This document shows, piece after piece, positions 26,932 through 42,199 of a stretch of 64,000 bases of DNA. The number at the start of each line of letters is the position of its first letter. The stretch's first letter is position 1. A model generated the notes under the pieces. The model was not told the origin of the DNA. It made no database searches and saw only the letters and a list, made by a program, of their open reading frames with translations. The DNA is from a virus (taxonomy: Duplodnaviria > Caudoviricetes), in IMG/VR virus record IMGVR_UViG_3300028628_000004; one strand, 5' to 3'. Both the position numbers and the translations under genes were made by a program.

Positions 26932-26940
26932 ATATTCTCC

Positions 26941-26986: not shown

Positions 26987-26990
26987 AAAC

Positions 26991-27064: not shown

Positions 27065-27068
27065 ATGA

Positions 27069-27188: not shown

Positions 27189-27194
27189 ATGAAA

Positions 27195-27269
27195 TGGTTG
27201 GCACGGTAGGTGCTGCCCCTACTACGTCGGGTGTCAGAAACCCGCATTCTGCTGTTGAATTACGTGCCA
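27195..27269 (-). tRNA. tRNA-Gln(CTG)
   Basis: CGGGT-TT-CTG-AC-ACCCG. Confidence 0.85.
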
Positions 27270-27274
27270 GTAAC

Positions 27275-27712: not shown

Positions 27713-27749
27713 AGAGCCTCCATAAGTATTTATCCTACGGAGTAAAAAA

Positions 27750-27824
27750 TGGTGCCTGCCCCCGGTAACGCTCCGGGTTTGTCCGCTCTTCAGGCGGGTG
27801 CTTTACTATTTAAGCTAGACAGGC
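27750..27824 (-). tRNA. tRNA-Phe(GAA)
   Basis: CCGC-CT-GAA-GA-GCGG. Confidence 0.82.
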
Positions 27825-27827
27825 ATA

Positions 27828-27898
27828 TGCAGGATAGAGGAATCGAACCTCTGACTCCGGCTTAACTGCCGGTGTGATAACCACTTCACCAATCCCGC
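27828..27898 (-). tRNA. tRNA-like with a 6-nt anticodon loop, identity undetermined
   Basis: CCGGC-AGTTAA-GCCGG; intact D and T arms; no CCA. Confidence 0.55.
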
Positions 27899-27913
27899 TA
27901 GGTTTTTGCAGAA

Positions 27914-28066
27914 CCTTAACTGACTTTCTATCATTATAGTGGCGAAGATCATCCACTTTTAAGTAGCTTGGGGTACTACTTGTGTAGCATTCCGTAGCTA
28001 ACGGAGATGCCCTTTACCAACCCTCTATAATTATTGTGGCGGGGATCGTCCACAGTAAAGCAGCTT
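27914..28066 (-). repeat. Two diverged copies of a ~56-nt pseudoknot motif
   Basis: AAGCT.CTT.A..GTGGA.GATC..CGCCAC.ATAAT.ATAGA..GT..GT.AAGG at 27914-27969 and 28011-28066. Confidence 0.7.
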
Positions 28067-28089
28067 TGAGCGTCCTCATTGCCCTATCA

Positions 28090-28160
28090 AGTATCATTAC
28101 GGAATCGAACCGTTCCTCCCGCGTCATAAGCGGGTATGCATCCGTTACACCAAAGATACT
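28090..28160 (-). tRNA. tRNA-His(ATG), rare A34 anticodon, no CCA
   Basis: CCCGC-TT-ATG-AC-GCGGG. Confidence 0.7.
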
Positions 28161-28174
28161 CTTAGCTTCAAACT

Positions 28175-28251
28175 TGGCGACTCCAGTGGGGTTTGAACCC
28201 ACGACCTATTGCGTGACAAGCAATTGCTCTCCCAGGCTGAGCTATGGAGCC
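28175..28251 (-). tRNA. tRNA-Asp(GTC)
   Basis: ATTGC-TT-GTC-AC-GCAAT. Confidence 0.9.
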
Positions 28252-28255
28252 ATAA

Positions 28256-28330
28256 TGGCGGGTCTAGGGAGACTTGCGCTCCCCTTTTCGGATCGACAAT
28301 CCGATATGTCGCTATCTACATTTTAGACCC
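28256..28330 (-). tRNA. tRNA-Asp(GTC), variant elbow
   Basis: TCGGA-TT-GTC-GA-TCCGA. Confidence 0.82.
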
Positions 28331-28447
28331 AAAAGACCACACCGTTTCTGCATTGTTAAGAGGCTGGTATGGTGCTACTGAACGACCACTCATGGTTGAG
28401 CATCTTAGAGAGGCTTGAGTGGGGCGGAGCCGTTTCATGCTCCTTAT

Positions 28448-28526
28448 TGGTGGGCAAGGTGGGAATCGAACCCGACCTCAACAACTTTATCAGAGTTGCA
28501 CTAGCATACCAGCTAGACTCTTGCCC
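28448..28526 (-). tRNA. tRNA-Ile(GAT)
   Basis: CAACT-CT-GAT-AA-AGTTG. Confidence 0.82.
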
Positions 28527-28739
28527 AAAAATGTACCAACTTCACGCATCGGTCCATGAGCATTCAAATAAGGTTCTTCCATTGAAGGAAATGAATGATC
28601 TTATAGGAGACAGGGTGCTACCCTGGCTGAACAGCGGCGTTAAGGATCCCCTTCCGGGTCCAAGTGGATTTATTCTCCCCTCGACATGGAGATTTTGGTG
28701 GTGGATATATTTTAAGACCGCTACCGCCACACGGTCTGC

Positions 28740-28814
28740 TGGCACCCCAGGAAGGACTCGCACCTTTCATCTTCGGTTTCGTAGACCGACGTTCTTCTGT
28801 TATACTACCGGGGT
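28740..28814 (-). tRNA. tRNA-Arg(ACG)
   Basis: TCGGT-CT-ACG-AA-ACCGA. Confidence 0.85.
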
Positions 28815-28821
28815 ATGAGAA

Positions 28822-28892
28822 TGGCAGGCAATCGTGGTGCTTACCCACGCTGATCTTCGTTCGAAGCGATGATTGCTCTCGGAGCATTGCCC
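28822..28892 (-). tRNA. tRNA-Arg(TCG), reduced D arm
   Basis: TCG-CT-TCG-AA-CGA; GCCA end. Confidence 0.65.
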
Positions 28893-28904
28893 ATGAAAAA
28901 GATT

Positions 28905-29041
28905 GTAGCAAGACGGCTACATAAGCCGCATTCATCATCAAGATAACTACCCGTCCTGGGAACTTAATCGTGGGACTTCAACCCCCGTAGTTAGGCTCTT
29001 TATTTCCCCTTGATGTGTCTTTATGTTTAGACGATTGCTAC
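28905..29041 (-). ncRNA. tRNA-derived RNA with expanded anticodon arm
   Basis: GTAGCAA/TTGCTAC; D-like arm; CATCAAG/CTTGATG enclosing about 70 nt. Confidence 0.5.
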
Positions 29042-29042
29042 T

Positions 29043-29230
29043 TGGTGGGGGAGGTTGGATTCGAACCAACATGCCTCATCGGAACTTATCAGTTAAGTCC
29101 CACGCCTTACGCTCGTTGGGTAATTACTCCGTATGAGCATCGTGGGTTGAATTCTCTATTGTGAGTAACGTTATCTCTCACAGAAAATTCGTTTGTTCAA
29201 CGAGTCGCTTTGCCATTAGCGTACTCCCCC
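29043..29230 (-). ncRNA. Tyr-like tRNA body with ~110-nt structured insertion replacing the anticodon
   Basis: GGGGGAG/CTCCCCC-ACCA, canonical D and T arms. Confidence 0.65.
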
Positions 29231-29281
29231 AAAAGATGAAGGTTGCTTGCGTTAGTGGAAGCGAGCCTACAAACCTACGCA

Positions 29282-29355
29282 TGGTGGGCAATAAGGGAAT
29301 CAAACCCCTGTATTCTGAACGTCAATCAGATGTTCTATCATTGAACTAATCGCCC
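29282..29355 (-). tRNA. tRNA-Val(GAC)
   Basis: TCTGA-TT-GAC-GT-TCAGA. Confidence 0.87.
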
Positions 29356-29357
29356 AT

Positions 29358-29388
29358 AAATCAAACTACGCTATAGAGTTGTTAAACG
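29358..29388 (-). promoter_or_regulatory. boxA-like plus CGTAGTTTG leader motif (1 of 5 copies; others at 30810, 37357, 38257, 38751)
   Basis: GTTTAACAACTCTATAGCGTAGTTTGAT directly 5' of a tRNA. Confidence 0.65.
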
Positions 29389-29484
29389 AAGCATTCGCTT
29401 CGTGGCTCTACTATAAGAGGTCTTCTGTGTAATACAATAGGAGCGACACACATACATCAGGAGTGTATCACACAGAAGCTTTGC

Positions 29485-29573
29485 TGGCGGAATCACACTG
29501 AATCGAACAGTCCAGACCTTCAAGCCTGGGGACGGCTTTCGAAACCGATTGAACACCTTGTTCCCGTGACTCC
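29485..29573 (-). tRNA. tRNA-Ser(CGA), 8/4 fold
   Basis: CGGT-TT-CGA-AA-GCCG; 8-bp acceptor, 4-bp T stem. Confidence 0.8.
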
Positions 29574-29580
29574 AAAACTT

Positions 29581-29673
29581 TGGCGGATAGAGAGGGATTC
29601 GAACCCCCGGTGCCCGTTAAAAGGCACTTCGGTTTTCAAAACCGACGCAATCGACCTACTCTGCCATCTATCC
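29581..29673 (-). tRNA. tRNA-Ser(TGA)
   Basis: TCGGT-TT-TGA-AA-ACCGA. Confidence 0.92.
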
Positions 29674-29677
29674 ATGC

Positions 29678-30064
29678 CTACATCCATAATCTACCTAATC
29701 TTTTTTCAAATAGCTTTTGAGCCTTTAAAAACATCTTTGCGTCCTCCGCACATAAAGATGGATATACTTGAGGTTTCTCTTTACTAGGAAGACGAGTAAC
29801 AGTGGAGAAGCCATCTATCATTGCCTTCAAGTCCCTGACAAGTTTCTTGTCTTGCTTATCATCTGGATGCATCTTATGAAGATACATCTTGAGACGAGGA
29901 ACTATCCAGCTACAAAAGGCAACATCCAAGTTTATTATTTCTTCGGCTCGGATTGCTTTGTTGCTCACGATATCATCAGCGAGTTTGAGAAGGCTCTCAT
30001 TTTTTTCTCTGAGCTTCTCGTTTTCTTCTTCGAGTTGCTTGATGTATATCTTTTCCTGTGTCAT
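29678..30064 (-). CDS. Hypothetical protein (coiled-coil N-terminus; NLD..F..WI.PRL..Y phage-type motif)
   Basis: ORF track; TTGATA-N17-TATAAT promoter. Confidence 0.75.
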   Translation of the reverse strand: MTQEKIYIKQLEEENEKLREKNESLLKLADDIVSNKAIRAEEIINLDVAFCSWIVPRLKMYLHKMHPDDKQDKKLVRDLKAMIDGFSTVTRLPSKEKPQVYPSLCAEDAKMFLKAQKLFEKRLGRLWM

Positions 30065-30098
30065 ACACCTATTATAACTATGGTATATGATATATCAA

Positions 30099-30188
30099 TG
30101 GTGGAGTAAGGAGTAATCGAAACTCTGCCCCCTTGCGGCGACCTTTCGCTTTCCAGGCGAACGCATCTCCCCGATGCTTCTCTACTCC
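30099..30188 (-). tRNA. tRNA-Ser(GGA), 8/4 fold with bulged A
   Basis: TTCGC-CT-GGA-AA-GCGAA. Confidence 0.78.
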
Positions 30189-30194
30189 ATGAAA

Positions 30195-30476
30195 TTAACC
30201 GCCAAGTATCTTATCAAAATCAAACTTATCTTTGATAAACTTATGAAAAAACTGACCTTTACTTGGTGAAAATTTAAATTTATCTTTTAAGAATCTTGAT
30301 ATGTTGTTATAAGCATATACTACAGAAGGGTCGCCTTCAAACCTAATATACAATATTTTTTTCTTACGTGAATATCCAGATTGGATAATAGCAGTCGAAT
30401 CAACATTTGTTGGTGTTAAATTGGCTTCTTCAAGTTTCTTCCAAGTTTCTTGGAGATGTTTATGAATATTATCCAT
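30195..30476 (-). CDS. KTSC domain protein
   Basis: VDSTAI..SGY....ILYIRF....VYAY..I......SKGQFFHKFIK. Confidence 0.85.
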   Translation of the reverse strand: MDNIHKHLQETWKKLEEANLTPTNVDSTAIIQSGYSRKKKILYIRFEGDPSVVYAYNNISRFLKDKFKFSPSKGQFFHKFIKDKFDFDKILGG

Positions 30477-30495
30477 GTATTCATATTTATAAAAT

Positions 30496-30569
30496 TGGTG
30501 CTGCTCCAAGGAATCGAACCTTGTTTCCCTACATACCAAGCAGGTGTAATACCAGTATACTAGAGCAGC
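30496..30569 (-). tRNA. tRNA-Thr(GGT)
   Basis: CCTGC-TT-GGT-AT-GTAGG. Confidence 0.9.
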
Positions 30570-30574
30570 ATAAG

Positions 30575-30714
30575 ACCAGAGAAGAGATTGGGAGCAACAG
30601 TGTTTTTGCCGCTCTGCCGTTGAGCTACCTCACCGTTTGTGGTGAGGGTAGGATTCGAACCTACATCCTGCTCCTTATAATGGAAGTAACCGTCACAATG
30701 ACTACTTCTCTGGT
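30575..30714 (-). ncRNA. YrlA-type Y RNA
   Basis: Long closing stem; T arm, then closed acceptor-like hairpin, then D arm (permuted tRNA domain). Confidence 0.75.
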
Positions 30715-30716
30715 TT

Positions 30717-30807
30717 TGGTGGAAGGTGGGAGAATCGAACTCCATTCCCATTAAAGGGAACAATTTCTTTAGCAAAGAATTCCAGTACCACACTGGTTCT
30801 ACCTTCC
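30717..30807 (-). tRNA. tRNA-Ser(GCT), 8/4 fold with bulged A
   Basis: TTCT-TT-GCT-AA-AGAA. Confidence 0.8.
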
Positions 30808-30834
30808 ATAATCAAACTACGCTTATAATGTTGT

Positions 30835-30870
30835 AAAAAGAAAAACCCCGACTTTTTGAGTCAGGGTTTT
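30835..30870 (-). terminator. Attenuator A terminator
   Basis: AAAACCCTGACT-CAAAA-AGTCGGGGTTTTTCTTTTT. Confidence 0.85.
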
Positions 30871-30899
30871 CAGAGGGTGCCTATTTTTAGGTCTTTCTC

Positions 30900-31004
30900 T
30901 TACTTACCTGACTCCTGAGTAATAAAATCAGAGAGACGGCGACTCGACAACCATGATGGTTGGAGTTGCTGGACTGGCTGATGGGTGGGTAGGAGGTTAA
31001 TCAT
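30900..31004 (-). CDS. Leader peptide A, MINLLPTHQPVQQLQPSWLSSRRLSDFITQESGK*
   Basis: 34-codon ORF between TATAAATA (31018-31025) and the terminator; contains antiterminator GAGTCAGG. Confidence 0.75.
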   Translation of the reverse strand: MINLLPTHQPVQQLQPSWLSSRRLSDFITQESGK

Positions 31005-31106
31005 AATGTTCTATCTTTATTTATATGCGTATTCTAACATGTCCTGAGAAAAATACAATAAGTATTTTTACCATTGCGTAGTTTGTAATGTTTATAAGGA
31101 CTTACA

Positions 31107-31406: not shown

Positions 31407-31481
31407 TGGTGCTACTTGAGAGATTTGAACTCCCGACCTTCTGTTTACAAAACAGATACACTACCACTGTGTTAAAGTAGC
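31407..31481 (-). tRNA. tRNA-Thr(TGT)
   Basis: TCTGT-TT-TGT-AA-ACAGA. Confidence 0.9.
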
Positions 31482-31485
31482 ATAA

Positions 31486-31560
31486 TGGTGCCCCCACCAC
31501 GACTCTCACATGGCTTTCCGGAGTACAAAACCGGTGTGTCGATATCTACACTTTAGGGGC
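31486..31560 (-). tRNA. tRNA-Thr(TGT), variant elbow
   Basis: CCGGT-TT-TGT-AC-TCCGG. Confidence 0.75.
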
Positions 31561-31592
31561 ATATGCCTCCCACTGAAGGGAGGTCTTGTAAT

Positions 31593-31922
31593 TTACTTCA
31601 AAAGCGACAGCTTACCGAAAATAGCTTTGGACACTTCGTTGTCGATGGGTTCAAAAGCAGTTGCGGTTTCTGCGTTAGACATATCGGGTTCTATGAAGGT
31701 GGTGTATGATAACTCCATTCTGTCATAGAGTGCCTTTATGCTTGCAATTTCGTTATCCGTTGCGGAGAGAAGAATCATTGTCTTGTGGTTGTTCACCCAA
31801 TCAATGACTTTGGGCTTCTGTCCGTGTTGTGCCATAAACTCGGCAGCCGCGTGGCTACTCTGTACAGCACAATGAGTTAACGGAAGTATATCTCGTCTGA
31901 TGAGGATGAACATCTTAAGCAT
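31593..31922 (-). CDS. Peptidyl-tRNA hydrolase, Pth2-like
   Basis: KMFILIRRD....CAVQSSHAAAE...W...KTMILL...FIEPD...ETATAFEP; GGAGG RBS. Confidence 0.8.
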   Translation of the reverse strand: MLKMFILIRRDILPLTHCAVQSSHAAAEFMAQHGQKPKVIDWVNNHKTMILLSATDNEIASIKALYDRMELSYTTFIEPDMSNAETATAFEPIDNEVSKAIFGKLSLLK

Positions 31923-31926
31923 TTTG

Positions 31927-32313
31927 CTATATACCTCCGGTGCCACAGGCACACTCGGGTATGAGAGCATCTTGTTTCTCCTTGACGTAATCTTCCATTC
32001 TCTTACGAATGATTTCAGAAGACTGAACATATTCTTTTTCTCTCTCTTCGTTTAAGTGGCACTTACCACGAACCTGTCCATACGCTATATGCATACAAGT
32101 AGTCCGGTACTTATCGTTGCGGATTGCGTTCTCTGCACACCACCAGTATTTTTCACCTGATGTATCGTAGGGGTAGGCATTGCCTGGAAGTCCAGTTGAT
32201 GCACTACGCTGGTTGCGGCGTAAAGCCTGTTTGTTGTGAGCAAGTCTCTCAGCGAGAGTCTTGATTTCGCTGCGGAAAAATTCCATTGCGAGTTTATGTT
32301 GGGTTATATCCAT
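31927..32313 (-). CDS. Hypothetical protein co-transcribed with Pth2
   Basis: AAGGA RBS; HIAYGQVRGK. Confidence 0.75.
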   Translation of the reverse strand: MDITQHKLAMEFFRSEIKTLAERLAHNKQALRRNQRSASTGLPGNAYPYDTSGEKYWWCAENAIRNDKYRTTCMHIAYGQVRGKCHLNEEREKEYVQSSEIIRKRMEDYVKEKQDALIPECACGTGGI

Positions 32314-32365
32314 GATTTTATTCCTTAAGGTTGATTGTTGAGTTTACGAACTACAGACAATCAGC

Positions 32366-32413
32366 TTATGGAGGACCACGAATCAGCTACCCATACTCTT
32401 TGTTCTAACGCAT
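32366..32413 (-). promoter_or_regulatory. Amber-interrupted leader M-R-*-N-K-E-Y-G-*-L-I-R-G-P-P-stop
   Basis: AAAGGA RBS, then ATG CGT TAG AAC AAA GAG TAT GGG TAG CTG ATT CGT GGT CCT CCA TAA. Confidence 0.7.
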
Positions 32414-32445
32414 AGCTATCCTTTCTTGTTGAGGTTAATACGACA

Positions 32446-32521
32446 TGGTGCTTCCGGTGGGATTTTAACCCACAACCAAGCGGTTTAGAATCGCTTGCTC
32501 TTTCATTTGAGCTACGGAGGC
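32446..32521 (-). tRNA. Amber suppressor tRNA (CTA)
   Basis: AGCGA-TT-CTA-AA-CCGCT, full cloverleaf, ACCA. Confidence 0.8.
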
Positions 32522-32526
32522 ATGAA

Positions 32527-32601
32527 TGGTGCCCATCTCTGGTAACGCTCCAGATTCTCTACGATACGAATGTAGTGCATCGCTTTTAATGCTTGATGGG
32601 C
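32527..32601 (-). tRNA. tRNA-Thr(CGT)
   Basis: CTACA-TT-CGT-AT-CGTAG. Confidence 0.8.
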
Positions 32602-32605
32602 AAAA

Positions 32606-32680
32606 TGGTCGTGGTGGTGGGAATCGAACCCACTAGGAGCGGCTTATGAAACCGCCGTCCATCCATTGAACTTCACCACG
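32606..32680 (-). tRNA. tRNA-Met/Ile2(CAT)
   Basis: GCGGT-TT-CAT-AA-GCCGC. Confidence 0.82.
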
Positions 32681-32966
32681 AGACGGGGTATGTTATTTCT
32701 TACATCTGCATACACCCCATGATATGCGGACTTCGATGTTACCTATAATAGATCCCTGACTTTGGCTTAGGGGGAGTAACATTTCCTCTAAGCCCACTGG
32801 CTTTTTGATAGGGTCAACCAGATGGGTAATAATTAGTAGGACAGTCACATGGCATGAGTAATGGGCAACCTAACTTGCCACCATGAATTACACTGAACTC
32901 TTTTTACGGGAAAGATAACCCATCATGTAAGTGTTACATCAACCCTACATTTGCCTTGCGGCTATA

Positions 32967-33041
32967 TGGCACCCAAACTAGGACTTGCACCTAGAAGAAT
33001 TCTTTAGGAAAGAATCAGTTTTCTATTTAGCTTATTCGGGC
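32967..33041 (-). tRNA. tRNA-Arg(CCT)
   Basis: ATTCT-TT-CCT-AA-AGAAT. Confidence 0.82.
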
Positions 33042-33349
33042 ATGATGAGGAAGCTTCGGGTGTATTCTATAGAATAGAAAACTTGTCCGAAGCGTCTATG
33101 CGGTTAGAAGAGTCCTCTTTCTCTACTAACTGTTCGCGATCCTAAACTCGTATCTCGGTCGTTACTCTCGGAGCCGCATATAAAGTGTCATTTAGGACAC
33201 GAGTCCACTTTACAGGAAGTTCCGTGAGTTGTTCATAGGAACTTCAGCTAATAACCCGTTTCAGTATGACCACATGGTGGTTCAAACCATATTTCTATGG
33301 CTACTTAACGAGCCAACCATATCAACTCATTCCGGTTGGGTTTGAGAAA

Positions 33350-33412
33350 GAGCCGAGATTAATCGCAACGGTGTGTTTTTCCAAAGAAGTAACCGTTACA
33401 TGACTGCGGTTC
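33350..33412 (-). ncRNA. Short Y-RNA-family stem RNA
   Basis: Shares AGTCA..GTAACGGTTACTTC...ACACCGT..AATCTC with 30575..30714. Confidence 0.6.
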
Positions 33413-33566
33413 AGGTGGTAATAGTATTCACTACAAGATTCGTTGGGCATTCCTATGCCTATCTTAGAACCTTCCACTCTCTCTGTGGCAATACTATTGG
33501 TAAGATGACAGGAGCTTCATATACTCTACTGTCTTTAAAAGTGTCTGTCCGACACTTATATGAAGG

Positions 33567-33652
33567 TGGAATCGCACGGGGGAGTCGAACCCCGGACCTT
33601 AACAGTTTTGCAGACTGCTCCCAGAAACCCTCTGAGATGAAGGGCATGCGAT
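33567..33652 (-). tRNA. tRNA-Cys(GCA), atypical D arm
   Basis: GCAGT-CT-GCA-AA-ACTGT, U73. Confidence 0.78.
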
Positions 33653-33950
33653 TATGCTGTGATACTTTCAAGAAAGCTATATCCTTGCCCACCAACACTG
33701 TTGGCTACTCAGACCTCTCTTGTTGCTTGTCACCCCTTAGTATCATAGAGGCTCGCTTAACGTTTGGGACCGTTTTCCAGATGAAAGACTGGTATGTACT
33801 TGCAGCGATTTCGCAATCCTTTGCGGTTTCACTTGCTCCAGATAAAGACCGCCTTTCACCTTCTAGTGGCGCGGCAATAATCTTCAAGTATTGCAAGAAT
33901 CCCCTTCAATCCTTGTACAGTCACAAGTAGTCCTTTTTCAAGGGACGAGT

Positions 33951-34026
33951 TGGTGCAGGTTGTCGGAATCGAACCGACGCCTTCTGATTGGAAGTCAGGC
34001 ATGCTACCACTGGACACCAAACCTGC
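33951..34026 (-). tRNA. tRNA-Gly(TCC)
   Basis: CTGA-CT-TCC-AA-TCAG. Confidence 0.88.
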
Positions 34027-34031
34027 ATAAA

Positions 34032-34143
34032 TGGTGCGCCGGGATGGAATTTAACCACCTTCCCCCTTAACTTACAGGCAACTCGCTACGCGCAGCTTGC
34101 TGCTAGTTTTTTGTAAGGCGCTCTAACGATGAGCTACCAACGC
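34032..34143 (-). ncRNA. tRNA-derived RNA with elongated anticodon hairpin
   Basis: GCGTTGG/CCGGCGC-ACCA; D and T arms; long hairpin in place of the loop. Confidence 0.6.
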
Positions 34144-34324
34144 ATATTTTTCTGTGTGTCTTCCATCCTTTTCTTTTAAGTGTTCTGACCAAACTTCGTC
34201 TCACACACCTTCCTGTTTCAAGGCACTCAATGACATAAGTATAGCCAAGTTAAGAGGAATGGACTTAGGGTTACGGATTGTCATATCTCAAACCAGAAGT
34301 AATGGGACATTCGTCACAGAAAAT

Positions 34325-34399
34325 TGGAGCAGTGTAAGGGAATTGAACCCTTGTATCCAGCTTGGAAGGCTGGCACATAAGCCTCTCTGTCAACACTGC
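34325..34399 (-). tRNA. tRNA-Gly(TCC)
   Basis: CCAGC-CT-TCC-AA-GCTGG. Confidence 0.88.
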
Positions 34400-34606
34400 A
34401 TAGGATCTACTATACGCGAGCTAGTAGATGTTTTATTTCTTTCTTTGAATACCACTCATCGTCCCTCGCATCGTAATGGGTGATATGAAATTTAGGCTAC
34501 TTGGGAATCTTGTTCGCAAAGGAACCACCCGATGCTACTAGAGACTCCTGTTCACACAGGGTACTTACTCGCCGCAACTGGTTAGGAATTAGCTTTCAAT
34601 ACCGTT

Positions 34607-34726
34607 TGGCTGGAAAGAAGGGATTCGAACCCCTGACCTAGTGATTATGGTGATGAGCGTAAGAGTTGAACTTACTGATTCCTTTGCCCATTACAGTCAC
34701 TTGCACTACCGCTGTGCTACTTTCCA
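34607..34726 (-). tRNA. tRNA-Asn(GTT) with a 45-nt mini-tRNA insert (34648..34692)
   Basis: AGTGA-CT-GT[insert]T-AA-TCACT. Confidence 0.8.
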
Positions 34727-34732
34727 ATGATT

Positions 34733-34830
34733 TGGCGTTCCCGGTAGGATTTGAACCTACGACCATTGGATTATGGCAGTGATTTGTTAATCACCGAAAT
34801 CCAAAGCTCTTCCAACTGAGCTACGAGAAC
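34733..34830 (-). tRNA. tRNA-Arg(TCT) with a 22-nt GCCA-ended hairpin insert (34774..34795)
   Basis: TTGGA-TT-TC[insert]T-AA-TCCAA. Confidence 0.82.
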
Positions 34831-34833
34831 ATG

Positions 34834-34912
34834 TGGCACCCATGGTAGGAGTTGAACCTACATGTATCCAGTTAGCTTTCTCCTGCTTAGAAGGCAGGCG
34901 GCATACATGGGC
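34834..34912 (-). tRNA. tRNA-Arg(TCT), D-arm-less with expanded variable region
   Basis: CCTGC-CT-TCT-AA-GCAGG. Confidence 0.75.
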
Positions 34913-34923
34913 ATGAAGAAATC

Positions 34924-34987
34924 GGGGAGATTAGGAGTTACGGTGTTTTGTTTCATAAGGTGAAGTAACCGTAACAATGACTGCCCC
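34924..34987 (-). ncRNA. Short Y-RNA-family stem RNA
   Basis: GGGGCAGTCATTGTTACGGTTACTTC...ACACCGTAAC..AATCTCCCC. Confidence 0.6.
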
Positions 34988-34995
34988 AAAGGATT

Positions 34996-35113
34996 GTGTT
35001 AGCATAGGGGGATTCGAACCCAGGCAACATAAGTCGCCTGTTTTACCCGCATGACATTTTAGTGACCGCTATTTGCAGTCTGTCGGATCTACCGCTGAGC
35101 TACACGCTAACAC
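34996..35113 (-). ncRNA. tRNA-like RNA with an 11-bp closing stem, no CCA
   Basis: GTGTTAGCGTG/TATGCTAACAC; TAGCTCAGCGGTAGA; GGGTTCGAATCCC. Confidence 0.5.
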
Positions 35114-35302
35114 GAAAAGGTGAGTCTCTAGTAGGCTGGCGAGAGGCTACGATGGTTAGTCGTATAAGCGACCTGAAAAAGTCGCTCCACGTTCACTACT
35201 AGGCACCCGAATTAAATTGGTGGACAGAATTACCTTTTACGATTAGCTGCCCGATCCTAATCAACCATTGTTAGATGGGGAAATGGTATCGAATAACCCC
35301 TT

Positions 35303-35378
35303 TGGTGGACACAAAGGGAGTCGAACCCTTCACAGATGCATTGCAAGTGCGTCTCGCCCCCACGGAACATGTGTGCCC
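35303..35378 (-). tRNA. tRNA-Ala(TGC)
   Basis: GCA-CT-TGC-AA-TGC, G3.U70. Confidence 0.82.
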
Positions 35379-35442
35379 AAAAATGGTGAAGCTGGTTTCT
35401 TTTTATGAGTGAAACACTTTGCCTCTAACAAAAGTTCTCGTA

Positions 35443-35518
35443 TGGTGGAATGATCCGGCTACGCTCCGGACGCCTCCTGCGTGCAAGGCAGGCGCTCTAC
35501 TGAATGAGCTATCACCCC
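35443..35518 (-). tRNA. tRNA-Ala(TGC), variant elbow
   Basis: CCTGC-CT-TGC-AC-GCAGG, G3.U70. Confidence 0.85.
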
Positions 35519-35599
35519 ATGGAAAGCTATATGTTTCTTTTTGTTGACAGGGAAAGAAACTTGTAGAGTCGCTTAGCTTCTACTAGAAAGAACCCACGA

Positions 35600-35675
35600 T
35601 GGATGCGGTGGGCTGGACTTGCACCAGCGATTCCCGCCTTATGAGGGCGGTGAGATGCTACTTCTCTACCCCGCA
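35600..35675 (-). tRNA. tRNA-Met(CAT), initiator-like body
   Basis: CCGCC-CT-CAT-AA-GGCGG. Confidence 0.8.
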
Positions 35676-35707
35676 ATGCTGAAGGTTATTAGATACCTAC
35701 AAACTTT

Positions 35708-35781
35708 TGGAAGCGCAGAAAGGAGTCGCACCTTTATCTATTGGTTATGAGCCAATTATGCTACTGTTACACCACCGCGCA
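35708..35781 (-). tRNA. tRNA-Met(CAT), 1:72 mismatch
   Basis: ATTGG-CT-CAT-AA-CCAAT. Confidence 0.8.
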
Positions 35782-36530
35782 GTGTTAATACGAATTCTAC
35801 CCTTTACAAATCCCATTTCTATATATTTGTTTATGTCATTTTTATTTATTCTAAAACATTCACCAGTTTGAAGATTCTTCACCCATATGAGTTGAGAATA
35901 TATTTTACCATATCTCTCTTTCATAGTGTTTGATAAGTTTTCTCTTGTTTCTTTCGATGACATTCTTTCTTTCATTTTTTGTGAAAGTAATGTCTTAGTT
36001 TCGTTACTTCCACATTCACTCTCTTTTTTGTATCTTTCTTTTACTGATAATGAGATTTTGTTTCTTACCTCATCATTTATATATCTTTTCTTTGCTCTAT
36101 CTGACATTTTCTTTCTCGTTTCATCTGATATAATTCTTGTCTTATTAGTATCTATCATTTTTTGTTTTGATTCTTTCGAGTAGGTTTTTGGTTTCTGACT
36201 TATTATGGAGAGCTTTCTTTTTGTCTCATCAGTGTGATTCTTTCCTCTAAACTTTGGTCCACCTTCGCCACCAACTGATATGTTATAAACATCTTTTCTT
36301 TTTATAAAATCTTCATTCACAATAAGTATTTCCATTTTATCCATTTGCTCTTCGTTGTCAAAAACATGGAGTATTTCTTTTGTAAAGTTACTTCTCCCAT
36401 ATTTCTTAACGGCAGCCTTTATATGATGTCCGGAACCTAAGTAATCATCGTTGATATTTTCGGTTTGGTGCTTCCCAATGTAAATCTTACCGTTTATCTT
36501 ATTAGTTATCTTGTATATGGTATAAAACAT
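35745..36530 (-). CDS. GIY-YIG homing endonuclease (Seg-like) with NUMOD3-type repeats
   Basis: TIYKITNKINGKIYIG; YNISVGGEG; HTDETKRKLS; GGAG RBS. Confidence 0.9.
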   Translation of the reverse strand: MFYTIYKITNKINGKIYIGKHQTENINDDYLGSGHHIKAAVKKYGRSNFTKEILHVFDNEEQMDKMEILIVNEDFIKRKDVYNISVGGEGGPKFRGKNHTDETKRKLSIISQKPKTYSKESKQKMIDTNKTRIISDETRKKMSDRAKKRYINDEVRNKISLSVKERYKKESECGSNETKTLLSQKMKERMSSKETRENLSNTMKERYGKIYSQLIWVKNLQTGECFRINKNDINKYIEMGFVKGRIRINTARWCNSSIIGS

Positions 36531-36667
36531 AATACTCCTATTATACCAGTATTTATATTTCATAACCAAACGATTTACTGCTTCTCTATCAAAAATGGGA
36601 GCCAACCTAACGCAAGCTAGGGACACTTTTTACGGCTATCACAACTTACATACGACACAGATGAATC

Positions 36668-36738
36668 AGGGAGATTATTAGCTACGGTGTTTTTTTTTCG
36701 TTTTATGTAAATGAAGTAACCGTAACAGTGACTGCCCT
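36668..36738 (-). ncRNA. Short Y-RNA-family stem RNA
   Basis: AGGGCAGTCACTGTTACGGTTACTTC...ACACCGTAGC..AATCTCCCT. Confidence 0.6.
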
Positions 36739-36741
36739 AAA

Positions 36742-36817
36742 TGGTACACCCACAGGGAATCGAACCCTGATTAAGAGAATGAAAGTCTCCTGTACTGAGC
36801 CATTATACTATGGGTGC
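36742..36817 (-). tRNA. tRNA-Glu(TTC)
   Basis: GGAGA-CT-TTC-AT-TCTCT. Confidence 0.88.
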
Positions 36818-36973
36818 ATGTGAGTTACAGAGCCAAATGTAACTCTTATTATATTTACATGGTCGGGTTGGTCCTCCATGGGTCGCTGACAACAGAATTG
36901 CTGTGCGAGCCAACTCTCCCTCTTGCGAGTTCTATGAGTTGCGCTATCTATTGCTTTGACCGTTCTATACAAC

Positions 36974-37049
36974 TGGTACTCCTTGAGAGACTTGCACTCT
37001 ACTTTATACGCTTGAAAGGCGTGTTTCTTACTACATAGAAGAAAGGAGC
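36974..37049 (-). tRNA. tRNA-Glu(TTC), variant elbow
   Basis: ACGC-CT-TTC-AA-GCGT. Confidence 0.8.
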
Positions 37050-37100
37050 ATGAACAGAGTTTTTCTTCCGCCAGGAAAAGGAAACTCCAAAACTTTGAGA

Positions 37101-37180
37101 TGGTCCGCGAGGCTGGATTCGAACCAGCTTGTATCCGTATAACCTTTCAACGATTTATAAGACCGAGGGTGTACTCGCGG
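37101..37180 (-). tRNA. tRNA-Ile(TAT), D-arm-less with expanded variable region
   Basis: CGGT-CT-TAT-AA-ATCG. Confidence 0.75.
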
Positions 37181-37276
37181 GTAACTTTTCCTCGCATTTC
37201 TGCGTTAGGGTCTAATAGGTTATCAATACAAAGAGATGTAGCAGCGTTTATAGTGAGTTATGCTGCGATCACATTC

Positions 37277-37351
37277 TGGTGGGTCGCCACGGGGTCGATC
37301 CGTGTTCCATGGTTTAAAAGACCATTGCATCAGCCCTAATGCTTGCAACCC
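37277..37351 (-). tRNA. tRNA-Lys(TTT)
   Basis: ATGGT-CT-TTT-AA-ACCAT. Confidence 0.85.
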
Positions 37352-37448
37352 ATAATACAAACTACGCTATACACTTGTGAAGTCGCTGGCATTGCTGCCG
37401 TTGATGATACCATCATACAGCCCCTTTCAGGAATGCAAGAGGTAATTT

Positions 37449-37534
37449 TGGTAGGGGTAGTCGGACTTGAACCGACACTCCGGTAAAGGAAGCGGATTTT
37501 AAATCCGATGCGGCTGCCATTACGCCATACCCCC
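37449..37534 (-). tRNA. tRNA-Leu(TAA)
   Basis: CGGA-TT-TAA-AA-TCCG, long variable arm. Confidence 0.88.
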
Positions 37535-37552
37535 ATTTTGTCAACAAGAAAT

Positions 37553-37629
37553 TGGTGGGTCCACTCGGTACTGCCCCGAGTCCCTCTGGTTAAGAGCCAG
37601 ATGCTTACCACTTTTAGAGCTTTGGACCC
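37553..37629 (-). tRNA. tRNA-Lys(CTT)
   Basis: TCTGG-CT-CTT-AA-CCAGA. Confidence 0.85.
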
Positions 37630-37700
37630 ATGCCTCCTGTTTATTCCCACTCCTTCGAGTGGACTCACAATGATGTGAGAGGATCAAGAGATTCCTTTGA

Positions 37701-37830
37701 TGGTGTCGTGTGTAAGATTTTCACTTACCTTGATATCTTAATTGGATATCGTATTTGACTGCTTTTTCTCCTTTTCGTCCTTGGGGGGATCCTTCACCAC
37801 CCCAGGTCAGAGAAATAATACGAACACGAC
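37701..37830 (-). ncRNA. tRNA-derived RNA with a large D-loop insertion
   Basis: GTCGTGT/ACACGAC-ACCA; GATATC-CAATTAA-GATATC; T arm. Confidence 0.55.
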
Positions 37831-37831
37831 T

Positions 37832-37906
37832 TGGTAGGCGAGGTAGGTGCTGCCCCTACTACTTCCTGCATGTAAAGCAGGCACTCTGCTGTTGAGTTAC
37901 GCGCCC
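37832..37906 (-). tRNA. tRNA-Val(TAC)
   Basis: CCTGC-TT-TAC-AT-GCAGG. Confidence 0.85.
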
Positions 37907-37963
37907 ATGTGTTGGGTTTTTCACTCTTGTGGAGTATAGAAAAACCGTAACAAAACTATTTTT

Positions 37964-38037
37964 TGGCTGCCCCAAAGGGAATCGAACCCCTATGATCTGA
38001 TTAACAGTCAGACATAATACCATTATATGACAGGGCA
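37964..38037 (-). tRNA. tRNA-Asn(GTT)
   Basis: TCTGA-CT-GTT-AA-TCAGA. Confidence 0.88.
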
Positions 38038-38041
38038 ATGC

Positions 38042-38161
38042 TGGTGGAGTTGATGGGATTCAAACCCATATTTGTCAAATGCCATTTAAGGCGTAAAGAT
38101 GACTGTCTTTGTCCTGTTATGTGATGTTGCAACATCCATAAACATTAGACGACTTAACCCC
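38042..38161 (-). ncRNA. tRNA-derived RNA with bulged acceptor and D/anticodon insertions
   Basis: GGGGTT(AA)G/CAACTCC-ACCA; ATGGG-TTTGAAT-CCCAT. Confidence 0.55.
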
Positions 38162-38165
38162 ATAT

Positions 38166-38253
38166 TGGTGGGACCGGTAGGAGTCTCACCTACGGAGCCA
38201 ATTAAGGCATCGGTTTTACAGACCGCGCTCGCCATCTACGAGCATACGTTCCC
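38166..38253 (-). tRNA. tRNA-Tyr(GTA)
   Basis: CGGT-CT-GTA-AA-ACCG, long variable arm. Confidence 0.82.
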
Positions 38254-38428
38254 ATGAATCAAACTACGTTTATATACTTGTAAAGTCATCAGTCAATCCT
38301 ATGAGAGTTTTAATGTCGCCTGCCGTGTCTTTAGCACGGAGTCTTATGGCTTGCTCTCAGCGGCTTGATGGGTATATCCTAACAGGTATTTTAGGAATGC
38401 AAGAAGTATTTTTTTGAATTCCTGTAAG

Positions 38429-38503
38429 TGGTACTCGTACAGAGACTTGCACTCTGTTTATCCGATTGAGAATCGGGGTTCTTACTACATAGAAGATACG
38501 AGC
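38429..38503 (-). tRNA. tRNA-Glu(CTC)
   Basis: CCGA-TT-CTC-AA-TCGG. Confidence 0.83.
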
Positions 38504-38505
38504 AT

Positions 38506-38586
38506 TAGAGCCTCTGACGGGGATTAGGCACCCCGCTTCCTCCGGTTTACAGTCCGGTGCTTTAAACTAATATAAGCTACAGAAGC
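38506..38586 (-). tRNA. Thr-like tRNA with irregular anticodon and T loops, identity undetermined
   Basis: CCGG-ACTGTAAA-CCGG; ends in CTA. Confidence 0.5.
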
Positions 38587-38667
38587 ATGGCTCCGAATTT
38601 GTTATTACGCTGAGTCTATCGGAATACTCTCAGATGCCGCTGTGTTAGAGAGGGGCGGCTCCCCTTA

Positions 38668-38745
38668 TGGTGCGGTAAACAGGACTTGAACCTGCAACAT
38701 CCACTATGGCAAAGTGGCGCTCTAATCCAATTGAGCTATTACCGC
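38668..38745 (-). tRNA. tRNA-Gly(GCC)
   Basis: CCACT-TT-GCC-AT-AGTGG. Confidence 0.9.
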
Positions 38746-38789
38746 ATACTACAAACTACGCTATAGAATTGTGAAAGACATCCGAAACG

Positions 38790-38818
38790 AAAAAAGCCTC
38801 TGGTTTGACCAGAGGCTT
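38790..38818 (-). terminator. Attenuator B terminator
   Basis: AAGCCTCTGGT-CAA-ACCAGAGGC-TTTTTT. Confidence 0.88.
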
Positions 38819-38846
38819 GTGTATCTCATGAAGAGATAGACAGCCT

Positions 38847-38912
38847 CTAGGAACCCACGCCTTCTGCGTTGGCTCTTTTATATCCTATCTTATTTGTTAA
38901 GCAAGTGGTCAT
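38847..38912 (-). CDS. Leader peptide B, MTTCLTNKIGYKRANAEGVGS*
   Basis: 21 codons, all different; AGGA upstream; TATAAATA at 38956-38963; stop overlaps antiterminator TAGAGGCT. Confidence 0.78.
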   Translation of the reverse strand: MTTCLTNKIGYKRANAEGVGS

Positions 38913-38947
38913 TGAAGGCGTGTTCCTAAGTGTGTGATACAGGGTTG

Positions 38948-39682
38948 CTATAAAGTATTTATATGGGATATTGTATCACACTTTAAATTTTTTCCTAAAC
39001 ATATTTTAAAGTAGCTTTCCGATACCTCATAGCCAACATACTCTCTGCCAAGTTTCTCACAGGATTCTGCGACTGTTCCTATGCCCATGAAAGGATCTAG
39101 GACAGTATCACCAGCATCAGTTGATAATTTAATACAGATTTCTGGTAACAATGGATGGAAGGGTGCTGGATGGTCCTTCTGCTTCTTCGGAGGCATGACC
39201 CAAACCTCTGACCGAAATTCTTTGGGTAGTCTGCTTTTGTATACCTTTGGCTTGCCCTTAGCTAACCAGAATATATATTCAGTGGTTGGAGTCAAAACAT
39301 CATTCCGTATATTAGGAGAGTTTCTTCTGTCAATAATTATAAGCTGATAGAGATTCCACTTTGTCTTGCTCACGATATCGTAGGGGTTGTAGCACTTGTT
39401 GCTCTTTCGACGCATCTTGTGGTTGTAAAACAAAGATCCATCGTCTTTAGTTTTTTCAAATATCTTATCAAGAATCTTTACTTGCCACTCTTGGTATTCA
39501 CTCTCTGGCATGTCATCGCCATATACATCATAGTCGATGTTGTGCTTTGACCATATCTGGTTTCCAGTTTTTACCTTCCCCAGCAATCCCTTCTTGTTAT
39601 AGGGCGGGGAGGTAATTGTAGTCTGGATGCTATTGTCTGATAGGCTTGAAATACCTTCAAGACAATCCATGTTATAAATCAT
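38948..39682 (-). CDS. DNA methyltransferase, beta class (SPPY, probably N4-C)
   Basis: TSPPY; HPAPF; VLDPFMGIGT. Confidence 0.9.
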   Translation of the reverse strand: MIYNMDCLEGISSLSDNSIQTTITSPPYNKKGLLGKVKTGNQIWSKHNIDYDVYGDDMPESEYQEWQVKILDKIFEKTKDDGSLFYNHKMRRKSNKCYNPYDIVSKTKWNLYQLIIIDRRNSPNIRNDVLTPTTEYIFWLAKGKPKVYKSRLPKEFRSEVWVMPPKKQKDHPAPFHPLLPEICIKLSTDAGDTVLDPFMGIGTVAESCEKLGREYVGYEVSESYFKICLGKNLKCDTISHINTL

Positions 39683-39718: not shown

Positions 39719-42199
39719 TTAGCATTTTGAGTAGCCACATGCCTTACAAGTCTGACATCCTTCCATACGGATGATGTCCTTGCTACCGCAGCTTGGACAT
39801 GTTTCTCCGCTTACCTTTACTCCATTTTTAATATACTTCTTCAGGACTCGGCACATGACCTTGGTGAAGGATGCTATATTGTCGGTACGGACCTTTTCAA
39901 GTTGATGAACAAGATGCTCAAGAGGCGTTCCATGTCTCAACGAAATAGATACAAGACGGGTTACAAGCTCTTCTTCCTCTGTCTGGTCCTTCATGATGTT
40001 CTTGATAGTGAACCCATCATCAAATTCAACGTCATAGTGACCTTTTGCTTTCTTGACAAGCTTTCCATTGACATACTTCTTGTCAATGGTTCCGTTTTCG
40101 AAAACGAATAGTTCGTATGGCTCTCCACCTTCGAACAGACCAACGACCGCACAGTATTCTATTGAGCGAACCTTGTCAAGTTTCTTGCTGAGCTTCACAT
40201 GGTGTACTTCGCACTTGAGAGAAGTGGGACGCTTTGGGGCTGTTGTTTTAGTGATGGTAATAGCGTCTCTTCCGGATTTTTCCTTTGTTTCCTTTGGTTT
40301 ATCGTCAACGAGAACACCAGTACGACAGCCATCACGATAGATGGTAAAGCCCTTGCAGCCGCTTTCCCATGCCTTCATGTAAATCTCGGATACAAGTTCC
40401 TTGGTAGCAGAGTTTGGTAGGTTACAGGTCTTGCTGATAGAGTGACTTACCCACTTCTGTGCTGCTGCCTGAAGATCCACGGAAGCGACCCAATCAATCT
40501 CGTTTGAGGTTGCTTTGAAGTATGGGGAGTCTTCTATTTTTTCTTTTCCGGTTACTTCCATCCACTTGCGGAAGCCGTGGTGATAAACAGGAAACTCTTG
40601 CCACTTGTCACCCATGTCATCAACAAAATCAACTTTAGCAGATTTATCGTTTGGATTTATTTTCTTACGACGAGTGTACTTAAGAAGGAACGAAGGTTCG
40701 ATTCCAGAGGTAGTCTGTGTCATGGTAGAAACAGATCCAACTGGAGCCGTGGTAGTGGTCGATATGTTTCTACGACCATGCTTCTTGTAAAGGGTCTTGA
40801 GTTCGGGGTCAGATTCCAATAGCCTCTCTATAAATGGATGACCCCTCTCAAGCTTAGCGTCGAATATCGGGAATGTTCCACGATCACGCGCCATCATACA
40901 CGATGCCTTCTCGGAGTTGATGGCAAGTGCCTTGTATATTTCTTCAGTTTTCTTGATGGATTCTTTGGAGCCATAGCGAATATTTAAGGCGGCGAGGGCG
41001 TCACCAAGGGCAGTGATGCCAAGCCCTGTTCTACGACCATTGATGCATGCATTCTTGATGTTATTCCAGAGGTCAATTTCTATCTTCTTAACATTCTCTG
41101 GCTCAATATCGGCATGTATCTTCTTTAGAATCTTATCTATCTGCTCAAGCTCAATATCAATCATATCGTCCATAAGCCGCTGGGCTACTTGAGTAACTTC
41201 CGCGAACTTGACGAAATCAAACTCTGCTTTGTCAGTAAACGCATCATTGACAAACGAATTCAGATTGACAACCATAAGTCTGCAACTGTCGTATGGAGAA
41301 AGAGTTATCTCACCACATGGATTTGTTGAAGTGGATTTATATGATTCGTATATATCTGCTGGACCGTTATTTACGACATTATCCCAGAAAAGGATTCCAG
41401 GCTCAGCGGATTCCCAAGCAGCCTGAATAATCTCGCTCCAGATTTCTCTTGCATTTACCATTTCACTAATAGATGGCGTCTTGCTATCTACAGGAAAGCG
41501 CAACTCAACTTGTTTGTCCTGCTTGACTGCCTTCATGAACTCGTCAGTCATACGGATTGAAATGTTAGCACCAGTTACCTTCTTTTTGTCGCGCTTGATG
41601 TTGATGAAAGTTCTTATCTCGGGATGGTGACATGATATAGATAACATTAGAGCGCCTCTGCGCCCGTTCTGTGCAACTTCGCGACATGTATTCGAAAATC
41701 TTTCCATGAACACGCCGATACCGTCAGTGGTACGAGCAGCGTTCTTGGTTGATAGTCCCTTTGGACGAATATTGGATATATCGAATCCAACTCCACCACG
41801 ACGCTTCATAACTTGAGCCTGCTCTTGGTCTGTATGTAATATACCACCATACGAGTCAAGCGGCGAAGGAATCACGAAGCAGTTTGATGCAGACTGAATC
41901 TGATACGGATTTCCTATGGCTGACATAGGAGAACCCTGTGGAACTATATACTTGAAATTCTTGAAGTAAGAATATATCTCATCTTCTGACAATGGGTTTG
42001 GATACTTCTTTTCAATTCTGGCAAATTCTTTTGCTATTCTTCTGTGGGCTTGGTCGGGGGAACTTTCGAGTAGTTCATGTTTTTCGTTTCTGAGCGCATA
42101 CTTTCCTACGAATACTGAGGCTGCTAGTTCGTCACCATTGAAATATTCTACTGACTCCTTAGTTGCTTCTTCGTGGGTGTAAATTCTCTTATTTGTCAT
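39719..42199 (-). CDS. nrdJ: Class II adenosylcobalamin-dependent ribonucleotide reductase
   Basis: SNCFV; RRGA; TNPCGE; SISKTCN; C-terminal Zn ribbon ...CGYSKC. Confidence 0.9.
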   Translation of the reverse strand: MTNKRIYTHEEATKESVEYFNGDELAASVFVGKYALRNEKHELLESSPDQAHRRIAKEFARIEKKYPNPLSEDEIYSYFKNFKYIVPQGSPMSAIGNPYQIQSASNCFVIPSPLDSYGGILHTDQEQAQVMKRRGGVGFDISNIRPKGLSTKNAARTTDGIGVFMERFSNTCREVAQNGRRGALMLSISCHHPEIRTFINIKRDKKKVTGANISIRMTDEFMKAVKQDKQVELRFPVDSKTPSISEMVNAREIWSEIIQAAWESAEPGILFWDNVVNNGPADIYESYKSTSTNPCGEITLSPYDSCRLMVVNLNSFVNDAFTDKAEFDFVKFAEVTQVAQRLMDDMIDIELEQIDKILKKIHADIEPENVKKIEIDLWNNIKNACINGRRTGLGITALGDALAALNIRYGSKESIKKTEEIYKALAINSEKASCMMARDRGTFPIFDAKLERGHPFIERLLESDPELKTLYKKHGRRNISTTTTAPVGSVSTMTQTTSGIEPSFLLKYTRRKKINPNDKSAKVDFVDDMGDKWQEFPVYHHGFRKWMEVTGKEKIEDSPYFKATSNEIDWVASVDLQAAAQKWVSHSISKTCNLPNSATKELVSEIYMKAWESGCKGFTIYRDGCRTGVLVDDKPKETKEKSGRDAITITKTTAPKRPTSLKCEVHHVKLSKKLDKVRSIEYCAVVGLFEGGEPYELFVFENGTIDKKYVNGKLVKKAKGHYDVEFDDGFTIKNIMKDQTEEEELVTRLVSISLRHGTPLEHLVHQLEKVRTDNIASFTKVMCRVLKKYIKNGVKVSGETCPSCGSKDIIRMEGCQTCKACGYSKC

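Follow-up and report, generated by a model that had tools for sequence, protein, structure and literature searches.

We analyzed a 64,000-nucleotide (nt) stretch of DNA from a virus of the Caudoviricetes (Duplodnaviria; IMG/VR record IMGVR_UViG_3300028628_000004), hereafter called the window, and focused on leader B, a small open reading frame (ORF) that is followed by an intrinsic terminator and heads a large array of transfer RNA (tRNA) genes. The array, as called by ARAGORN and Rfam, runs entirely on the minus strand from position 38745 to 22354 and comprises approximately 45 tRNA genes and one transfer-messenger RNA (tmRNA) gene. Leader B and its terminator sit between a DNA methylase gene and the first tRNA gene, a tRNA-Gly that starts at 38745 (Table 1). 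The window belongs to a large uncultured phage, and metagenomic phages of 460-635 kilobases (kb) encode the closest relatives of its B12-dependent ribonucleotide reductase (46-48% identity). The first-pass annotation, a reading of the DNA letters alone, had reported here a promoter motif, a 21-codon ORF in which every sense codon is different and a terminator, and all three are present on the minus strand. Such all-different sets were found in 0.19% of 21-codon gene windows.

A sister element, leader A, lies within the array and shares the design of leader B, namely TATAAATA, a small ORF, a terminator and then a tRNA block, the first tRNA of which is at 30807. Leader A divides the array into block 1 and block 2, and it thereby provides a built-in control for any match between the codons of a leader and the tRNAs that follow it. 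Because this control is clean and reciprocal, the observation on leader B is stronger than the first-pass annotation could show.

The tRNAs called in block 1 by ARAGORN and Rfam were Gly-GCC, Gly-TCC, Tyr, Asn, Val-TAC, Lys-CTT, Lys-TTT, Leu-TAA, Glu-TTC, three tRNAs with a CAT anticodon, Ala-TGC, Arg-TCT, Arg-CCT, an amber suppressor (CTA) and Thr-TGT. Those of block 2 were Ser, Thr-GGT, Val-GAC, Arg-ACG, Ile-GAT, Asp, His, Phe, Gln, Pro, Leu-TAG, Leu-CAA, Leu-GAG and Trp. The amber suppressor that had been proposed for block 1 was recovered as a CTA-anticodon tRNA at 32446..32521 on the minus strand. The long ORFs of the window are intact under the standard code and TAG is therefore apparently not generally recoded. 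Two further tRNAs that had been assigned to block 1 were not recovered: ARAGORN and Rfam gave no confident call of a Cys tRNA, the candidate at 35376..35303 being called Ala-TGC, and neither program found an Ile-TAT tRNA. Within block 1, ATA could be read only by one of the three CAT tRNAs, if that tRNA carries lysidine.

Table 1. Coordinates of the leaders, the tRNA blocks and the associated features; positions refer to the window except in the row for GenBank LR745206.1.
Feature	Coordinates	Strand	Remarks
Ribonucleotide reductase gene	42199..39719		826 codons, without intein
DNA methylase gene (Pfam N6_N4_Mtase)	39682..38948	minus	stop codon TAG; TATAAATA within its final codons
TATAAATA promoter motif of leader B	38963..38956	minus	kept in the diverged relative
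Region 1, 5' arm of long stem (leader B)	38928..38914	minus	contains the only Shine-Dalgarno-like AGGA
Leader B ORF	38912..38847	minus	ATG start, 21 sense codons, TAG stop
Region 2, 3' arm of long stem (leader B)	38864..38848	minus	codons 17-21 and part of the stop codon
Antiterminator 5' strand (leader B)	38850..38842	minus	spans the stop codon; overlaps 3 nt of region 2
Hairpin 2 (leader B)	38838..38822	minus	6-base-pair stem; enclosed by the antiterminator
Intrinsic terminator B	38818..38790	minus	11-base-pair GC-rich stem (38818..38794), 3-nt loop, six T
26-nt motif (approximate length), five copies	38777..38752, 38285..38260, 37383..37358, 30837..30813, 29387..29362	minus	
Exact 10-mer core of the 26-nt motif in the leader B element	38761..38752	minus	
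tRNA block 1	38745..31407	minus	approximately 23 tRNA genes, with interspersed homing-endonuclease genes
Leader A element	31025..30833	minus	heads tRNA block 2
TATAAATA of leader A	31025..31018	minus	
Leader A ORF	31004..30900	minus	34 codons
Antiterminator strand (leader A)	30914..30907	minus	pairs with 30865..30858
Terminator of leader A	30871..30841	minus	followed by a T run
tRNA block 2	30807..22354	minus	tRNAs and tmRNA; control set for leader B
Inverted 10-mer cores adjoining TATAAATA motifs	21790..21799, 31076..31085	plus	
Small ORFs before tRNA arrays, LR745206.1	L018 20030..20115, L018 42703..42819, L019 ~888..983, L020 ~718..813		

Codons of the leaders and anticodons of the blocks

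We counted which codons of each leader can be read by which block, using strict wobble rules and excluding start and stop codons. In leader B, 14 codons were read only by block 1 and 2 only by block 2, whereas in leader A 4 were read only by block 1 and 26 only by block 2 (Fisher p = 1.2e-6). No such split was observed in the other five frames (two sense, three antisense) of both leader stretches, indicating that base composition is not the cause of the match. A contrast as large as that observed was reached in none of 100,000 shuffles of the leaders and in none of 100,000 pairs of in-frame windows taken from long phage genes. Thus, the permutation of leader codons against block anticodons, which had been suggested as a check, gave a match far beyond chance against both shuffles and gene windows, and the in-frame codons of leader B mirror the block that it heads rather than block 2.

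Coverage of the blocks was similarly high. The leader B ORF covers 13 of the 14 kinds of sense anticodon in block 1 and the leader A ORF all 15 kinds in block 2; neither was equalled among 200,000 random in-frame gene windows, in which the best values were 12 and 14, respectively. The choices within split codon boxes also differ between the leaders, leader B having TTA, AGA and GTG, and leader A having CTN or TTG, CGY and GTC. The first-pass annotation had counted 20 of the 21 codons of leader B as served by block 1; the firm number is approximately 18 of 21, and TGC, ATA and TCC are without a confirmed cognate.

A comparison between lineages bears on whether this match is maintained. Two lineages were located, the window type (contigs L012-L014), in which leader B is identical to that of the window, and a diverged type (L001, L015, L017 and L023) with an overall identity of 81-85%. 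Between the lineages, the nucleotide identity of the ORF was 95.5% for leader B and 98.1% for leader A, compared with 78% for the neighbouring methylase gene and 74% for the 91-codon gene that precedes leader A. Third positions differed in 3 of 55 leader codons vs 155 of 335 codons of these two genes (p = 5e-10). The first 16 codons of leader B, most of which are unpaired in the predicted fold, did not change at all, and RNA structure alone is therefore insufficient to explain the constraint on this leader. Codon identity itself seems to be under selection in the leaders. The tRNA genes diverge faster than the leaders; tRNA-Gly-GCC, for example, is 67% identical and retains its anticodon. Further, the relative retains the antiterminator pairing of leader B by means of a G-U pair, and the stem of hairpin 2 is also retained, with changes in the loop and flanks.

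Covariation of leader codons with tRNA content was followed in these two lineages only. In leader A, a change from Asn to Thr removes a mismatch, and a change of the Val codon from GTC to GTA creates one, Val-GAC being still present in the lineage that carries the latter change. Searches for additional relatives extended the comparison little: a DNA similarity search of the window against GenBank phages returned matches at the level of tRNAs only, the terminator and the downstream motif used as queries retrieved no further IMG/VR contig, and homologues of the methylase (approximately 63% identity) were non-syntenic and had no tRNAs nearby.

The simplest account of leader B would be a chance ORF beside the ordinary terminator of an operon that comprises the ribonucleotide reductase and methylase genes. 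The terminator is located 130 nt after the methylase stop codon, an ORF of 21 codons is not rare, and the purity of the codon match, taken alone and apart from coverage, is equalled by a few others of the window's 595 small ATG ORFs. None of these other ORFs, however, has such coverage at a comparable length, and the cross-match, the conservation of synonymous sites, the statistics of the antiterminator given below and the existence of the sister element each oppose a chance origin, which we regard as very improbable.

Pairings, promoter motifs and a candidate switch

Folding of the leader B RNA confirmed the 1:2, 2:3 and 3:4 pairings that had been proposed from inspection of the sequence. In both the minimum free energy and the centroid folds of 38965..38770, regions 1 and 2 pair as a 15-base-pair (bp) stem with a 2-nt bulge, and this long stem encloses almost the entire ORF. 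Terminator B was the strongest terminator of the region. The strand 38850..38842 can pair instead with the 5' arm of the terminator, 38817..38809 (9 bp, -16 kcal/mol, P = 0.0046 vs shuffles). The equivalent pairing of leader A comprises 8 bp at codons 31-33 (P = 0.0058), and in both leaders the complementarity of the antiterminator is thus located at the end of the ORF. When the leader B RNA was truncated before the 3' arm of the terminator, this pairing and hairpin 2 together formed an antiterminator of -23.8 kcal/mol.

We then folded the RNAs with a modelled ribosome footprint. In leader B, the antiterminator persisted with the peptidyl (P) site at codons 1 to approximately 16; with the P site at codon 17 to the stop codon it was lost, and the probability of the terminator exceeded 0.9. 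Leader A showed the same behaviour, with the switch at approximately codon 27. The stop codon is located 54-55 nt before the T run in both leaders.

The 196-nt leader B stretch 38965..38770 is also more stable than its shuffled versions (z = -3.97). Together with the conservation at the nucleotide level and the lack of a good ribosome-binding site, this stability would suit a structured non-coding RNA, either a small RNA or an element of the 3' untranslated region of the methylase operon, in which the ORF is incidental. We consider this improbable because the codon signal is confined to one frame in both leaders, because codons 1-16 of leader B did not change although most of them are unpaired, and because the same codon logic is found in leaders of unrelated sequence in the window and in another phage described below. 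Further, a search of 38746..38965 against Rfam at E values up to 1 matched no family, including the T-box and known leader families.

TATAAATA occurs in the whole window in 13 copies on the minus (coding) strand and in one copy on the plus strand, nearly all of them 13-45 nt before the start of an ORF, and it often has a TATAAT-like box 3 nt downstream. It thus behaves as a promoter motif of this phage, and it equals the T4 late-promoter consensus. The leader A ORF begins 13 nt past its TATAAATA, and this leader may give a nearly leaderless mRNA. That the leaders are translated is suggested indirectly by the frame-specific codon signal and by the conserved synonymous sites.

We suggest that leader B serves block 1 as a ribosome-mediated attenuator of transcription and senses the decoding capacity for the codons of this block, and we assign this reading a probability of about 0.65. 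Transcription would begin at the TATAAATA motif, and a ribosome would translate the 21-codon ORF while RNA polymerase approaches the terminator, provided that translation and its coupling to transcription occur as supposed. When decoding is fast, the ribosome would reach TAG and cover 38850..38842, which then could not pair with the 5' arm of the terminator; the terminator would form and transcription would stop. When a scarce tRNA stalls the ribosome within about the first 14-17 codons, 38850..38842 would remain free to form the antiterminator with hairpin 2, and the polymerase would enter the tRNA genes by regulated read-through. Because the ORF contains one codon for nearly every kind of tRNA in the block, such a switch would report the weakest tRNA of the set. 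Leader A would act likewise on block 2.

Several points weigh against this reading. First, no cognate tRNA of block 1 was confirmed for three codons of leader B (TGC, ATA and TCC), codons 18-21 are outside the modelled sensing window, and the changes of leader A between the lineages comprise one better and one worse match. Second, ordinary genes of this phage have strong Shine-Dalgarno sequences and neither leader has a good one; the AGGA of leader B is 11 nt upstream of ATG and inside the stem. Third, the long 1:2 stem and the antiterminator strand of leader B share no more than 3 nt, and the antiterminator still forms in the truncated RNA without a ribosome, indicating that the 1:2 stem protects weakly. 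Further, the terminator is favoured at equilibrium in most states, and the switch must therefore be kinetic. Finally, a strongly conserved motif of approximately 26 nt is found between each terminator and the first tRNA, and if it were a dedicated promoter, the tRNAs would be independent of read-through.

The 26-nt motif is present in five copies, the two between terminator and first tRNA and three before RNA genes inside the blocks; in each case its end lies 5-6 nt ahead of the 5' end of the tRNA or other RNA that follows. Candidate roles are those of a promoter, a boxA-like element and a processing site. In the first case, the terminators would only close the upstream units, the blocks would be driven from the motif, and the ORFs would be translated and selected for another use, possibly tuning of the late-promoter contribution alone or a report on decoding capacity to some other process, e.g., RNA stability or processing. 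The position of the copies, which include leaderless sites inside the blocks, is consistent with this arrangement, as is a promoter scan that flagged three of the copies; in addition, two inverted 10-mer cores lie beside TATAAATA and suggest a DNA-binding site. A sigma-70 reading of the motif was rejected, however, since with sigma-70 spacing the transcription start would fall within the tRNA, and the conserved part of the motif corresponds to the spacer and not to the -10 hexamer. The upstream half resembles boxA of rrn operons, and could equally be a -35-like box. As a boxA-like antitermination element, it could act in RNA transcribed from upstream, which would fit the attenuator model and not a separate promoter. 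A dedicated promoter would also leave unexplained the matched antiterminator at the end of the ORF. On balance, we consider it unlikely that the blocks are driven by promoters of their own.

An extension of the attenuator reading is that the two leaders together form a complete, self-tuning inventory sensor of the phage tRNA supply that also serves as an alarm against host defences. Whenever any one tRNA kind is cleaved or depleted, e.g., through host anticodon nucleases or the decay of host tRNAs in the course of infection, the ribosome would stall and the block of replacements would be switched on. The amber suppressor would be monitored as well, as the TAG stop codon of leader B is read by the CTA tRNA of the block. 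The codon after this TAG is AGG, which corresponds to the only anticodon kind not covered by the ORF, and read-through of TAG would end at a TGA within hairpin 2, near enough to disturb the 5' arm of the terminator. We hold this extension to be doubtful, and host anticodon nucleases as the trigger of the switch are a speculation. In the relative, the codon after TAG is GAG instead of AGG; a proposal that this change tracks the gain of Glu-CTC and the loss of Arg-CCT was rejected, since an Arg-CCT-like gene persists there.

Unusual RNA genes within the array

Several RNA genes of the array depart from the usual form. In block 1, an odd tRNA at 38586..38508 (minus strand) serves Tyr, and for two tRNA-like genes with non-standard anticodon loops (38508..38586 and 27828..27898, minus strand) ARAGORN reports two-base anticodons, 'gt' and 'tt'. 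A structured RNA of approximately 200 nt (~38040..38246, minus strand) follows a copy of the 26-nt motif; its 5' part looks tRNA-like and has the anticodon loop of a Tyr-GTA tRNA, and its 3' end comprises a T arm and CCA. This RNA is probably a tRNA-Tyr with a large insert, and in the relative a compact Tyr-GTA gene occupies the equivalent place (L015 7830..7914). Several tRNA genes (34607..34726, 34733..34830, 34035..34143, 27071..27188, 26014..26112 and 29043..29230) also have 22-115 nt inserted within or close to the anticodon loop. Because of these inserts, some anticodon calls are ambiguous (e.g., Tyr-GTA or Asn-GTT; Pro-CGG or Arg-TCT).

Block 2 ends with a full-length phage tmRNA (22532..22906, minus strand; Rfam RF00023, 108.7 bits). 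Two homing endonucleases are encoded inside the array on the minus strand, one of the GIY-YIG/NUMOD3 type (36521..35745) and one of the HNH type (23820..22981), each with its own TATAAATA. Between two tRNA genes, 28385..28422 (minus strand) matches the abiF RNA of Rfam with 41.6 bits (gathering score, 37), and 25881..25922 (minus strand) matches positions 1098-1143 of bacterial 23S rRNA weakly (23 bits). The ribonucleotide reductase gene of the diverged lineage (L015 2184..5600) is 1138 codons long and contains an intein with an HNH domain.

An independent case and known attenuators

A comparable arrangement was found in GenBank LR745206.1, a 635-kb uncultured phage in which four tRNA arrays are each preceded by a small ORF and then a terminator. 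The first leader contains His, Lys, Phe, Trp and Ser codons and precedes an array with those tRNAs. The cores of the other three leaders likewise correspond to their own arrays: the second contains Tyr, Glu, Gly, Ala and Ile-ATA codons, the third Asn, Thr, Met, Leu, Val, Ile and Arg codons, and the fourth Pro, Gln and Asp codons. Compared with random gene windows, the match of these leaders to their own arrays gave P values of 0.015, 0.068, below 1e-5 and 0.028, respectively. All four follow a common promoter-like motif that ends 8-10 nt before ATG. Terminator and first tRNA are only 20-25 nt apart in these arrays; a second promoter would hardly fit between them, which argues further against tRNA arrays driven independently of the leaders.

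The leader sequences of LR745206.1 are unrelated to those of the window and resemble them in the order of a promoter, a small ORF enriched in codons of the array, a terminator and a tRNA array. In the LR745206.1 leaders the core is matched and the ends are generic, whereas those of the window are matched nearly throughout and cover their blocks nearly completely. Since a second giant phage shows this design with leaders of unrelated sequence, the design may be widespread.

The attenuator reading bears on the question of why giant phages have tRNA genes by the dozen and how these are used. If the attenuator reading is correct, the phage gauges decoding speed codon by codon and adjusts each set of tRNAs to need, which would be a new use of textbook attenuation and the first with tRNA genes as the regulated output. 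It would also provide an experimental handle on the conflict between phage and host over tRNAs, whether this arises from a mismatch in codon usage, the decay of host tRNAs or anticodon nucleases, and the leaders would constitute compact natural sensors of individual tRNA levels. A full-text literature search, with most subscription journals outside its coverage, retrieved no paper on leader-peptide control of tRNA genes.

Among known systems, T-box riboswitches also sense the state of specific tRNAs through a choice between terminator and antiterminator. They bind uncharged tRNA directly by means of one specifier codon, without translation, whereas the proposed leaders have a contiguous, in-frame ORF of many codons, and leader B gave no T-box match in the Rfam search described above. 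The overall layout and the proposed mechanism are those of trpL and hisL, in which stop codon and T run are separated by a distance of similar magnitude. In trpL and hisL, however, the codons form tandem runs for a single amino acid and the 1:2 stem fully sequesters region 2, in contrast to the small overlap in leader B.

The leaders of ilvGMEDA (Ile, Leu and Val codons) and thr (Thr and Ile codons) are multivalent attenuators of enterobacteria. As in these, a short ORF with codons for several amino acids precedes an intrinsic terminator, alternative 1:2, 2:3 and 3:4 pairings are available, and the antiterminator would be blocked by a ribosome that has reached the leader's end. The enterobacterial leaders contain runs of codons for few amino acids, whereas leader B has one codon for nearly every tRNA kind (13 of 14), all of them different, and the leaders of the window distinguish synonymous codons (TTA, AGA and GTG in leader B; CTN, CGN and GTC in leader A). 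Several features expected of an attenuator are found at leader B, namely an ORF between promoter and gene, enrichment of the codons to be sensed, an intermediate intrinsic terminator and an antiterminator that a ribosome could mask. The genes to be regulated are phage-encoded tRNAs and not, as in the enterobacterial systems, genes for amino-acid biosynthesis or related proteins. The mechanism proposed for leader B is classical, and what is new, as far as we have found, is the use of tRNA genes as its output and the design of the leader as an inventory with one codon per tRNA.

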